From sequence record MT446396.1: a stretch of DNA of 64,000 nucleotides, one strand, 5' to 3'. Position 1 is the stretch's first letter, and each line of letters starts with the position of its first letter. Origin of the DNA: Escherichia virus TH22. This document shows, piece after piece, positions 15,189 through 20,362 of the stretch. Both the position numbers and the translations under genes were made by a program. Below the pieces are notes generated by a model that had not been told where the DNA came from, made no database searches, and worked only from the letters and a program-made list of their open reading frames with translations.

Positions 15189-15433
15189 ATGCAAATTACT
15201 ATCAATTTAAAAGAGTTTACTGGTACTGAAGCAGAATTGGATAGACTTTATAATAATACAGCATATGACGAAACCTTTTGGGTCAGGGACCGTTATGAAA
15301 ACCTCCATAAGGTGTCTTTGACATGGGAGCAAGGTCGCGGTAATAATTATCGTTTTGTTAAGGGTGATATTTTCTATTATAACTCTCATGACATCATTTG
15401 GCCAAACGATATTACACATGTGGAGGTGCTATA

Positions 15434-15434
<1 letters not shown>
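15189..15434 (+). CDS. hypothetical protein (81 aa)
   Basis: ATG preceded by GAGGA; track ORF 14952 begins upstream in the same frame. Confidence 0.5.
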
Positions 15435-17209
<1,775 letters not shown>

Positions 17210-17210
<1 letters not shown>

Positions 17211-17407
17211 TGAATATTCGTATAGTAAACAATAGATACGGCACCAATGAGGTGCTGTTTGAAAAAATGAATATAAGTCTCGATGAACTGCCTAAAGAGA
17301 AAACAACTATTTTTGTTCAGGGCAAAGAACTTTATGTTATGCGTGTGATTAAATCATATGAATATGATGATTTCAATCGGTCTATCTGGTTTATTGTCGA
17401 GGTCTAA
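17210..17407 (+). CDS. hypothetical protein (65 aa)
   Basis: ORF overlapping td stop (TAATG). Confidence 0.45.
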
Positions 17408-17468
17408 TGAAAATTCAAATTGCTGGCCTTTTATTCCTGGCTGTAATGGTCGGGCTTAACTTCCTGCT

Positions 17469-17768
17469 ATGAAAGCCTGTCGGGTTGTTAACAAATATCA
17501 ATCCGACTTTGATGTGAATATTCAACGGGGTACCATGTGGGGAAACCCATACAAAGATGGTACCCGAGAAGAAAATATAAAGAACTTTAAAGAATATTTC
17601 ATATCAAAGATTAAATCGGGTGAAATCAAAAGAGAACATCTAGAAACCCTTCGCGGAATGCGATTAGCATGTACATGTAAACCGAAAGCATGTCATGGCG
17701 ATGTTATCGCTCTGGTCGTTAACAAACTTTTCAAAGACACCTTTTCGCTCGAGGATTTGGGCGCATAA
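17469..17768 (+). CDS. DUF4326-like protein (99 aa)
   Basis: Motifs WGNPY, GTREE, LACTCKPKACHGDVI match the recalled DUF4326 signature (WGNP ... C.C.P..CHGDV). Confidence 0.6.
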   Translation: MKACRVVNKYQSDFDVNIQRGTMWGNPYKDGTREENIKNFKEYFISKIKSGEIKREHLETLRGMRLACTCKPKACHGDVIALVVNKLFKDTFSLEDLGA

Positions 17769-17777
17769 ATACGATTC

Positions 17778-17801
17778 CGCTTTAGGGCACCGTGATATAA
17801 T
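17778..17801 (+). promoter_or_regulatory. middle promoter (MotA-box-like CGCTTTA, N11, TATAAT) upstream of ORF 17828
   Basis: Seen in sequence. Confidence 0.4.
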
Positions 17802-17827
17802 TATTTAAAATTTAATGAGAGGAAATT

Positions 17828-18073
17828 ATGAATTTACGATTTAAACGCCAGTCAGGCGAAGTCATTTTTGAAATGCCACAATTTACCGAACAGGATTTAC
17901 CTGCACCAAATTCTTATATCACTATTGACGGAATCAAATTTCTGGCCAAACGACATGAACGTGTCTACTGTCATGATTCAGCCGGTGACGTCCAGTCATA
18001 TTTTGACATCACTGTCCAGTCAGAAGAAGAATATAACGATGAAATGACTTCGGAACTACCAGTGACAATTTAA
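17828..18073 (+). CDS. hypothetical protein (81 aa)
   Basis: RBS GAGAGGA. Confidence 0.55.
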   Translation: MNLRFKRQSGEVIFEMPQFTEQDLPAPNSYITIDGIKFLAKRHERVYCHDSAGDVQSYFDITVQSEEEYNDEMTSELPVTI

Positions 18074-18106
18074 GGTTCCCAACCCTTTTGAACTATAGAG
18101 GAAAAC

Positions 18107-20362
18107 ATGCAAGTACAAAAAAGTAGTGGTGTATCTCAAGATTTTGATGGCCAGAAAATTATTAAAGTTCTTTCCTGGTCATGTGAAGGAACCAATATCG
18201 ACCCGTATGAATTATACGAAACAATCAAACCACATCTGCGCGATGGTATGACTACTCGCGATATTCAGACGGTTATCATCAAAGTATCCGCTGGGCTTAT
18301 TTCGGTTGAAGAACCAGATTACCAATATGTTGCAGCGAAGGCTACGATGTTTGCTCTGCGTAAAGATGTTTATGGGCAATTTGAGCCACGTTCTTTTATT
18401 GACCAGATTTCTTATTGTGTCAATGAAGGCAAATATGACCCGGAGCTGTTATCAAGCTACTCGGCTGAAGAGATTACTTACCTGGAATCTCGTATTAAGC
18501 ACGAACGCGATTTTGACCTGACTTATGCAGGCGCGATGCAGCTTAAAGAGAAATACCTGGTTAAAGATAAAACCACTGGGAAAATCTATGAGACTCCACA
18601 ATTTGCTATCATGGCCATTGGCATGGCACTGCACCAGGATGAACCAACGGACCGCCTGAAGCACGTTTGCCGTTTTTATGATGCAGTATCCACGCGGCAG
18701 GTTTCGTTGCCCACACCTATCATGGCGGGCGCCAGAACACCTACCAGGCAGTTCAGTTCCTGCGTGGTTATCGAAGCTGCTGACTCCCTGAAGTCAATCA
18801 ATAAGACTGCTAACTCAATCATCGAATATATCAGTAAGCGTGCAGGTATCGGTATCAACGTTGGTATGATTCGTGCCGAAGGTTCGAAAATCGGTATGGG
18901 TGAAGTCAAGCATACTGGTGTTATTCCGTTCTGGAAACATTTCCAAACGGCTGTTAAATCATGTTCACAAGGTGGAATCCGTGGCGGCGCTGCTACTGCT
19001 TATTATCCTATTTGGCATTTGGAAGTTGAAAATTTACTCGTTCTGAAGAACAACAAGGGCGTTGAAGAAAACCGCATCAGACATATGGACTATGGTGTCC
19101 AGCTGAATAACCTGATGATGGAACGACTGGCTAAGAATGATTACATCACATTGTTTAGTCCGCACGAAGCTGGCGGTGAATTATATTATTCATATTTTGA
19201 TAACCCGGATAAATTCCGTGAGTTATATGAAGCCTTGGAAAAAGACCCGACGGTTCGTAAGAAGCGCATCAAAGCAAAAGATGTATTTGAATTATTCATG
19301 ACCGAACGTTCCGGGACAGCCAGGGTTTATCCACAGTTCGTTGATAACGTGAATGACTACACCCCGTTCATCCGTGATAAGGCTCCAATTCGTCAATCAA
19401 ACCTTTGCTGCGAAATTGCAATCCCGACCGCTGATGTAAACAGCGAAGATGCTGAAATCGGATTGTGCACATTGTCTGCATTTGTTCTGGATAGTTTTGA
19501 CTGGCAGGACCAAGATAAAATTAACGAGCTGGCCGAAGTACAAGTTCGTGCTCTTGATAATCTGTTGGACTACCAGGGTTATCCGGTTAAAGAAGCTCTG
19601 AAAGCCAAAAAACGGCGCAACCTGGGTGTTGGGGTTACTAACTATGCTGCATGGCTGGCAAGTAATTTCGCTTCATACGCTGATGCAAATGATTTAACAC
19701 ACGAACTATTTGAGAGATTACAATATGGCCTTATCCGTGCATCAATCAAGCTCGCCAAAGAAAAAGGACCTTGCGAATATTATTCAGACACTCGTTGGGC
19801 TCGAGGCGAATTACCTATCGACTGGTACAATAAAAAGATTGACCAAATCGCAGCTCCAAACTACGTTTGTGACTGGTCGTCGTTGCGGGAAGACCTGGTT
19901 GCACACGGCATCCGTAATAGCACCTTATCTGCGCTCATGCCTTGCGAGTCAAGCAGCCAAGTTTCCAACTCTACAAACGGTATCGAACCTCCGCGCGGTC
20001 CAGTAAGTATCAAGGAAAGTAAAGAAGGTTCTTTTAACCAGGTTGTTCCAAATATCGAGCACAATAAAGGATTGTACGATTACGCATGGGTATTAGCTAA
20101 GCAAGGTAACAAACCTTATCTGACCCAAGTCGCGATTATGTTGAAATGGATTTGCCAGTCAGCATCAGCCAATACCTATTACGACCCGCAGAATTATCCG
20201 AAAGGAAAAGTTCCGATGTCAGTTATGCTTGACGACTTGATGTACTTCTGGTATTTTGGTGGAAAAAACCTTTATTATCATAACACTAGAGATGGTTCTG
20301 GTACAGACGATTACGAAATCGAAGCTCCTAAAGCAGAAGACTGCTCTGCCTGTAAACTTTGA
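18107..20362 (+). CDS. nrdA: aerobic ribonucleotide reductase large subunit
   Basis: 751 aa; class Ia RNR alpha motifs; synteny. Confidence 0.95.
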   Translation: MQVQKSSGVSQDFDGQKIIKVLSWSCEGTNIDPYELYETIKPHLRDGMTTRDIQTVIIKVSAGLISVEEPDYQYVAAKATMFALRKDVYGQFEPRSFIDQISYCVNEGKYDPELLSSYSAEEITYLESRIKHERDFDLTYAGAMQLKEKYLVKDKTTGKIYETPQFAIMAIGMALHQDEPTDRLKHVCRFYDAVSTRQVSLPTPIMAGARTPTRQFSSCVVIEAADSLKSINKTANSIIEYISKRAGIGINVGMIRAEGSKIGMGEVKHTGVIPFWKHFQTAVKSCSQGGIRGGAATAYYPIWHLEVENLLVLKNNKGVEENRIRHMDYGVQLNNLMMERLAKNDYITLFSPHEAGGELYYSYFDNPDKFRELYEALEKDPTVRKKRIKAKDVFELFMTERSGTARVYPQFVDNVNDYTPFIRDKAPIRQSNLCCEIAIPTADVNSEDAEIGLCTLSAFVLDSFDWQDQDKINELAEVQVRALDNLLDYQGYPVKEALKAKKRRNLGVGVTNYAAWLASNFASYADANDLTHELFERLQYGLIRASIKLAKEKGPCEYYSDTRWARGELPIDWYNKKIDQIAAPNYVCDWSSLREDLVAHGIRNSTLSALMPCESSSQVSNSTNGIEPPRGPVSIKESKEGSFNQVVPNIEHNKGLYDYAWVLAKQGNKPYLTQVAIMLKWICQSASANTYYDPQNYPKGKVPMSVMLDDLMYFWYFGGKNLYYHNTRDGSGTDDYEIEAPKAEDCSACKL

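Follow-up and report, generated by a model that had tools for sequence, protein, structure and literature searches.

A stand-alone DUF4326 gene between td and nrdA of a T4-like coliphage: orthology to T4 nrdA.1 and a tentative functional proposal

Introduction

In bacteriophage T4, two small genes, nrdA.2 and nrdA.1, lie between td, the gene for thymidylate synthase, and nrdA, the gene for the large subunit of class Ia ribonucleotide reductase (RNR). NrdA.1 (NP_049846, gene T4p235) is a functionally uncharacterised protein of 109 amino acids (aa). In this work we analyse the equivalent interval in Escherichia virus TH22, using a stretch of 64,000 nucleotides (nt) from sequence record MT446396.1 (hereafter, the window), with emphasis on an open reading frame (ORF) at positions 17469-17768 whose 99-aa product belongs to the protein family DUF4326. 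The window comes from a T4-like coliphage of the genus Gaprivervirus (Straboviridae, Tevenvirinae), and the region in question matches that of Escherichia phages UPEC07 and TH55 at 100% identity and that of other members of the genus at 94-98%.

DUF4326 is a very large family, with members in phages, in viruses of archaea and in giant viruses of eukaryotes, yet it is experimentally uncharacterised. Iyer, Burroughs, Aravind and colleagues placed it in the rhodanese-phosphatase superfamily as a predicted enzymatic domain, suggested that it processes terminal ribose phosphates in ADP-ribose-derived products, and predicted that it bridges systems utilising nicotinamide adenine dinucleotide (NAD) with DNA modification or replication.

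Several described families resemble DUF4326 in one respect and depart from it in another. DUF488 (the E. coli YeaO family, in its ‘active’ viral subclade) has the same P-x-x-C-H loop followed by a helix, but is some 50 aa longer and carries an additional helix between strands 1 and 2. RapZ-C, the C-terminal domain of RapZ and a sensor and adaptor, has a single Cys and a true C-X5-R-S loop. The Cys-dependent phosphatases and rhodanese possess C-X5-R, whereas DUF4326 has C-X5-H-G-D and three strands only; no significant structural or sequence match to them was found. ComFB, a Cys-rich protein that binds zinc, offers a local match (PDB 4wai; ACTC..C..DV.AL..NK, phmmer E 0.29) to the Cys loop of DUF4326. 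DUF4326, DUF488 and RapZ-C are reportedly joined in a ‘RapZ-C-DUF488-DUF4326 clade’, said to have been defined by Burroughs and Aravind in 2023 in NAR Genomics and Bioinformatics.

Family membership and orthology to T4 NrdA.1

The gene and the two parts of its product to which the argument returns are as follows.

17469-17768, + strand: DUF4326 gene, orthologue of T4 nrdA.1; 99 aa, ATG at 17469, TAA at 17766-17768
17538-17573, + strand: loop that follows strand 2, with the beginning of helix 1, W24-G25-N26-P27-Y28 ... G31-T32-R33-E34-E35; G25, N26, P27 and R33 are near-invariant family-wide
17670-17702, + strand: Cys/His loop C68-T-C70-K-P72-K-A-C75-H76-G77-D78, a predicted active or metal site that connects strand 65-68, at its end, to helix 76-87, at its N-terminus

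The open frame starts at 17460, and therefore contains no in-frame start earlier than the ATG at 17469. A first-pass annotation, made from the letters of the window, had recognised the product as DUF4326-like by the motifs WGNPY, GTREE and LACTCKPKACHGDVI, and had claimed a conserved Cys/His cluster for it. All three motifs are present in the 99-aa product (residues 24-28, nt 17538-17552; residues 31-35, nt 17559-17573; and residues 66-80, respectively), and the assignment is upheld by the Pfam search, in which DUF4326 (PF14216) is matched at 78.3 bits, where the gathering cutoff is 25 bits, and with an E value of 7e-22, over profile positions 1-81 of 82. The PHROG match is to phrog_464, of unknown function (E 4.6e-45). 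The signature of the family, N8, D15, R20, G-N-P and C-x-C-x-P-x-x-C-H-G-D, is complete in the window protein, which is thus a minimal stand-alone form of Pfam DUF4326/PHROG 464, many other members being fused to SLOG, NADAR, DNA polymerase A, RNase H or Dam. Scans against other collections gave little else: no match to the known anti-phage defence proteins of PADLOC at E <= 1; in NCBIfam, ComFB alone (NF052654), far below threshold (E 0.005, 16.7 bits versus a cutoff of 120); and, for the surrounding DNA at 16500-18500, no RNA family in Rfam.

Comparison with the T-even phages, which had been proposed as a check, identifies the gene more closely. T4 NrdA.1 and the window protein share 68% identity across the full domain, along with the motifs and the invariant residues, and both occupy the td-nrdA slot with an NrdA.2-type gene adjacent. 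The T4 protein differs by 10 extra N-terminal residues and by having WGNY where the window protein has WGNPY. In 32 T4-like loci drawn from IMG/VR (53-98% identity), DUF4326 stands within the frd-td-...-nrdA-nrdB block, immediately 5′ of nrdA without exception, with frd and td preceding it in 31. Given this identity and this constancy of position, sequence comparison establishes that the ORF at 17469-17768 encodes a DUF4326 domain that stands alone, and that its product is orthologous to T4 NrdA.1. The homologues of VR26, VR20 and EAWsc9 are already labelled ‘similar to T4 NrdA.1’ or ‘NrdA-1-like’ in GenBank. The gene is therefore a known one, an annotated NrdA.1 orthologue in a known family with published computational predictions, and for this window nothing is gained beyond the correct assignment to that family. 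The orthology, the predictions, and the paralogy of two neighbouring ORFs described further on had all been missing from the first-pass annotation.

The conservation of the Cys/His cluster also holds, both near and far. No deviation from its motif is seen among 60 relatives at close to medium distance, and C68, C70, C75 and H76 occur jointly in 149 of 150 DUF4326 representatives that are mutually no more than 50% identical. In the same 150, other positions follow closely: R20, N26 and P72 (148 each), G77 (147), G25 (145), P27 (142), R33 (140), D15 and D78 (139 each) and N8 (133). The family from which this set comes is extensive, as a profile search of 1.84 billion representatives found 18,303 proteins at E <= 1e-3, each standing for a cluster formed at 50% identity, of which 6,747 also pass E <= 1e-10, and tblastn picked up homologues in 2,130 phage records out of 50,697. 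Matches in BFVD include proteins of haloarchaeal viruses, pandoraviruses, pithoviruses and marseilleviruses, named ‘DUF4326’ and nothing more.

Codon changes in the gene relative to four relatives are predominantly synonymous (synonymous to non-synonymous, 6:1, 13:2, 10:2 and 9:2), so that the gene, where present, is under purifying selection. This, together with its conservation, rules out a chance ORF.

Predicted fold and remote relationships

No solved DUF4326 structure was found by sequence searches of the PDB or by structure search. An AlphaFold2 model of the window protein, built on a 60-sequence alignment, reached a predicted local distance difference test score (pLDDT) of 94.3 and a predicted template modelling score (pTM) of 0.86. 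Its elements are a strand at 5-8, a bridge at 16-17, helices at 33-50 and 55-59, a strand at 65-68 and helices at 76-87 and 94-97, which would make the fold a minimal alpha/beta domain of about 80 aa with three strands. Foldseek returned no similar solved structure for this model. Searches of PDB sequences, by phmmer with the single protein and by hmmsearch with the 60-sequence profile, gave only spurious or sub-threshold matches to ComFB, RNase III and designed tetratricopeptide repeat proteins.

The near-invariant residues are confined to the loops that follow the strands: N8 after the first; D15, R20, G21, the G25-N26-P27 triplet and R33 further along; and C68-x-C70-x-P72-x-x-C75-H76-G77-D78 after the last. 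In Rossmann-like folds this region forms the active-site crown. In the model, the Cys/His loop runs from the end of a strand to the N-terminus of a helix, the position that the phosphate-binding CX5R loop takes in Cys-phosphatases and rhodanese; in DUF4326 the loop reads C70-KPKAC-H76-G77, i.e., C-X5-H, with the His at the helix N-terminus.

Two likenesses among DUF4326, DUF488 and RapZ-C can be made out by eye. The first is a motif of the D-V-R...N-P type after strand 2, which reads FDVYIGRGSxWGNPF in DUF4326, VFDVRFLPNPHW in RapZ-C and VVDVRLNNxSQ in DUF488. The second is an element made of a strand, a Cys loop, a His and a helix, represented by LGCFCKPKACHGDVI, CLLCSEDKPHHCHRRLV and IGCTGGKHRSVYI in DUF4326, DUF488 and RapZ-C, respectively. 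The statistical support for a likeness of the three families is weak: the hidden Markov model of DUF4326, searched against a small database, matches DUF488 ORFs with an E value of 9e-4, and two alignments of these families by hhalign were suggestive but sub-threshold, one with a P of 0.006 and the other, of 210 DUF4326 sequences with viral DUF488, with a P of 9.8e-4 over 66 columns and a probability of 22%. In the latter, the KPxxCH loop of DUF4326 and the helix after it fall on the KPHHCH loop of DUF488.

Fusions and gene neighbourhoods

The company that DUF4326 keeps elsewhere could be informative about its role. Among 42 long representatives of the family, the domain is fused to a YAcAr-SLOG in six, to an mSLOG in five, to a DprA-like SLOG in three and to NADAR in one or two, with single fusions to DNA polymerase A (with its 3′-5′ exonuclease), RNase H and Dam. 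Related associations are seen between separate genes. In N4-like contigs, DUF4326 lies either two genes 5′ of YAcAr or close to a faintly matching Macro gene, and in one myovirus it is the last gene of an operon with Macro, an IMPDH/GMP-reductase-like gene and a 136-aa ORF. A census of 251 neighbouring ORFs in 40 dereplicated viral loci found T4-type RNA ligase most often (9), followed by PNKP phosphatase, DUF488 and DuOB (4 each) and RlaP and IMPDH-like genes (3 each), with NrdD/NrdG likewise among the commonest. Thg1 is a further neighbour of the family.

Two of these contexts are robust. One is the adjacency of DUF488 and mSLOG-DUF4326: among 27 viral loci with the ‘active’ DUF488 (loop CSEDKPHHCHR; L097-L123, on contigs mostly of 15-45 kilobases, kb), an mSLOG-DUF4326 gene is found directly 3′ in 21-22. 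In both loci scanned for it (L097, 1671-3624, and L103, 1848-3531) a gene for the dual-OB-fold protein DuOB stands directly 5′ of DUF488, completing a three-gene cassette, and this DuOB-DUF488-mSLOG-DUF4326 cassette is probably equivalent to the systems for processing nucleic-acid ends that Burroughs and Aravind predicted. The other is found in jumbo phages of 345-350 kb, where DUF4326 sits between nrdD and nrdG, the genes of the anaerobic ribonucleotide reductase and its activase, with gene ends closely spaced or overlapping (e.g., L052, 2106-4754, on a 348-kb jumbo phage contig; L061; and phage Turkey3, H63). This is a second, independent association of DUF4326 with an RNR operon. In Klebsiella phage K14-2 the gene follows nrdB, and in Kuttervirus it lies away from RNR, between a gp46/47-like nuclease gene and a RegB-like gene.

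Possible function

In line with the prediction from Aravind's group, the interpretation that we favour, tentatively and at somewhat less than even confidence, is that DUF4326 is more than a structural module, namely a small enzyme that depends on Cys and His and works on phosphorylated ribose. In its favour we count the identity with NrdA.1 and the fixed place beside nrdA; the purifying selection and the near-invariant residues; the location of the Cys loop between strand and helix in the model, and its alignment with the KPHHCH loop of DUF488; the SLOG and NADAR fusions; the neighbouring DUF488, DuOB, Macro, SLOG, RNA ligase, PNKP and Thg1 genes; the order nrdD-DUF4326-nrdG; and the published prediction itself. 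Family membership, orthology, conservation, predicted topology, fusions and neighbourhoods are shown by the analysis, whereas the catalytic activity, what each residue does and the kind of substrate are what we infer, and could be pictured as follows. C70 or C75, together with H76, would carry out a thiol-based phosphoryl chemistry, with R20 and R33 holding the phosphate and N8, D15 and N26 the ribose. The substrate, a phosphorylated ribose, could be that of a nucleotide, of a metabolite derived from NAD or ADP-ribose, or of a nucleic-acid end. In T4-like phages, such an enzyme may assist the nucleotide-supply module without being essential to it, or may serve in counter-defence.

A bolder version of this proposal, to which we give a rather low probability, would tie the thiol enzyme to ribonucleotide reduction or to the defence of the nucleotide pool. 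There it might destroy a phospho-ribosyl metabolite with immune or inhibitory action, or mend nucleic-acid ends that carry a phosphate or ADP-ribose. If true, this would explain why DUF4326 is placed in operons of both class Ia (td-nrdA.1-nrdA; nrdB-DUF4326) and class III (nrdD-DUF4326-nrdG) ribonucleotide reductases, as well as its fusion to SLOG and NADAR elsewhere.

Several observations weigh against the enzyme proposal. The canonical CX5R loop, by which membership of the RapZ-C-DUF488-DUF4326 clade and of the rhodanese-phosphatase superfamily would be judged, is missing from the window protein. In the hhalign comparisons, for which the alignments were shallow, the probability reached only 22% for DUF488, and RapZ-C gave no signal (0.2-0.3% probability). 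The RNA-ligase neighbourhood, found in 9 of the 40 loci, is a weaker signal than at first sight, because seven of the nine are alike in size and gene layout and apparently represent one phage lineage of about 100 kb. Phage VR7 does without the gene, so that no essential role can be claimed for DUF4326. In the literature, we found no experiment on any DUF4326 protein and no functional study of NrdA.1 or DUF488. Finally, three Cys and one His within nine residues also have the look of a zinc site, and the local motif is ComFB-like.

This last point leads to the strongest rival, a non-catalytic zinc module or adaptor, which we regard as unlikely on balance, if one to be reckoned with. The CxCx4CH loop would here chelate Zn2+ and stabilise a very small domain, and the role of the protein, like that of RapZ-C, would lie in binding, be it to a partner such as ribonucleotide reductase or a SLOG protein, to a nucleic acid, or to a nucleotide as ligand. 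Four potential metal ligands, all of them invariant in a span of nine residues, are what such a module needs; the Cys region is locally like that of ComFB, in both the PDB and the NCBIfam matches given above; the domain, of some 80 aa, is very small and has few strands; and a stable position beside RNR genes of two classes would suit an adaptor. On the other hand, a single metal would not usually be bound by two neighbouring residues such as C75 and H76, and the near-invariance of R20, R33, N8, D15 and N26, all outside the Cys loop, points to a pocket for a polar or anionic ligand. The recurrent fusion to SLOG and NADAR, domains that are enzymatic or bind nucleotides, likewise fits a pathway enzyme better than it does a structural module.

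The same genomic position could be read as that of a redoxin-like thiol-disulfide helper, whose cysteines would restore RNR or a partner to the reduced state. The three cysteines are indeed invariant, and the gene is found directly 5′ of nrdA throughout the T4-like loci, after nrdB in K14-2 and between nrdD and nrdG in the jumbo phages. Yet the protein has no CxxC motif and no match to thioredoxin or glutaredoxin in Pfam or NCBIfam, its predicted fold is not thioredoxin-like, and phages of the genus already carry nrdC and nrdH. Moreover, many members have no RNR nearby (those of Kuttervirus, of N4-like phages and of the DuOB-DUF488 cassettes), and the fusions are to SLOG and NADAR, with none to redox partners. 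We therefore consider a redox helper to be highly improbable. The least credible candidate, an N-glycosidase of the NADAR type that would strip bases of ADP-ribose or cut the bond between base and ribosyl group, is contradicted by the lack of a Pfam NADAR (PF08719) match in the window protein, by the occurrence of NADAR and DUF4326 in one polypeptide, which marks them as distinct domains, and by the Cys/His cluster, which is not known as a feature of NADAR.

The enzyme proposal has the advantage of being within reach of experiment. With a T4 orthologue, nrdA.1, and a recombinant protein of 100 residues, the predicted phospho-ribose-processing chemistry is directly testable by standard T4 genetics, and so is any connection of the family with NAD/ADP-ribose-based immunity, with RNA repair or with ribonucleotide reductase.

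Organisation of the td-nrdA interval

Around the DUF4326 gene, the interval is made up of the following features.

16350-17210, + strand: td (thymidylate synthase), the upstream core gene; annotated td in EAWsc9 and VR26
17210-17407, + strand: 65-aa ORF, NrdA.2-like (phrog_2458, E 4.5e-19); absent in TH54 and VR7
17407-17472, + strand: hydrophobic mini-ORF of 21 codons, MKIQIAGLLFLAVMVGLNFLL; conserved, with its own GAGG
17779-17801, + strand: T4 middle-promoter-like element, with a MotA-box-like GCTTTA at 17779-17784, an 11-nt spacer and TATAAT at 17796-17801; 5′ of the 81-aa ORF, by consensus match only
17828-18073, + strand: 81-aa ORF, homologue of T4 NrdA.2 (Pfam DUF5496, E 6.5e-11; phrog_2458, E 6.6e-28), with its own ribosome-binding site, AGAGGA
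18107-20362, + strand: nrdA (class Ia ribonucleotide reductase large subunit), the downstream core gene

The first-pass annotation had described the DUF4326 gene as lying in an accessory slot between two core genes of nucleotide metabolism, preceded by the mini-ORF and followed by an 81-aa ORF under a middle promoter. The two core genes do flank the slot and both small ORFs exist, the mini-ORF being conserved and the 81-aa ORF being a homologue of T4 NrdA.2. The slot itself is variable, as the alignment of td-nrdA spacers from six phages of Gaprivervirus makes clear. In VR7 the spacer holds the mini-ORF alone; in TH54, the mini-ORF and DUF4326; in VR20, these two and the 65-aa ORF; and in the window, VR26 and EAWsc9, four small ORFs, the 81-aa ORF being also present. 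A search of the complete VR7 genome in every frame (hmmsearch, E <= 10) found no DUF4326-like segment, and since that genome does without it, the DUF4326 gene is accessory and dispensable in nature. The variation among these same-genus loci (window 17150-18110) affects whole ORFs, in the manner of modules, and because its sharp junctions fall at short repeated sequences (GGTCTAATGAA at either end of the 65-aa module, ATGAAA/ATAAATACG around the DUF4326 module), it suggests that the modules are gained and lost by recombination at micro-homologies.

The 65-aa and 81-aa ORFs are 26% identical to one another (E 8e-5), and by this similarity the DUF4326 gene is flanked by two diverged paralogues of the NrdA.2 type. 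T4 differs in having a single NrdA.2 gene, upstream. Of the 32 T4-like loci, 14 have a single NrdA.2-type copy, also upstream, and only the locus of the window/VR26 type has one on each side.

The genes on the upstream side are chained by overlaps of stop and start codons: TAATG at 17208-17212 joins td to the 65-aa ORF, TAATG at 17405-17409 joins the latter to the mini-ORF, and ATGA at 17469-17472 joins the mini-ORF to DUF4326. Such an arrangement suggests translational coupling. For the last pair, coupling is probable, because the DUF4326 gene has no Shine-Dalgarno-like sequence within 20 nt 5′ of its ATG and the mini-ORF has GAGG 4 nt 5′ of its own.

As for the middle promoter, a MotA-box-like element with TATAAT does stand upstream of the 81-aa ORF, and the pattern is enriched: GCTTYA-N11-13-TANNNT occurs at 14 sites in the whole window (including 7326, 10507, 12434, 27071 and 45590), 12 of them on the + strand, versus 4.9 +/- 2.2 in shuffled sequences, i.e., about three times as often. 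This is consistent with a MotA-dependent middle-promoter regulon of the T4 type in this phage; the activity of the promoter itself, read from a consensus match, stays putative.

Further upstream, just 5′ of frd, an ORF on the + strand at 15398-15775 (phrog_8592; 113/125 aa) is annotated in EAWsc9 as ‘type II toxin-antitoxin system PemK/MazF family toxin’. Pfam gives no PemK/MazF match for it, DUF4176 at E 0.13 being all that was returned, and the annotation thus has no support from these searches.

The mini-ORF is the most interesting by-product of this analysis. Each of the six aligned relatives retains it, even VR7, which lacks DUF4326, and 81 phage records from Gaprivervirus and Dhakavirus (JS98, JS10 and IME08 among them) contain it at full length, adjoining td among the matches listed. 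In T4 the gap between td and nrdA.2 is 20 nt, with no space for a counterpart, and in none of the annotated relative records inspected is the mini-ORF annotated as a gene. Although its stretch has diverged by 11-15%, versus 2-5% for the neighbouring gene, its codon changes are synonymous in 5-7 cases versus 2-3 that are conservative, replacing one hydrophobic residue by another. It may encode a small membrane peptide, serve as a leader for translational coupling, or do both.
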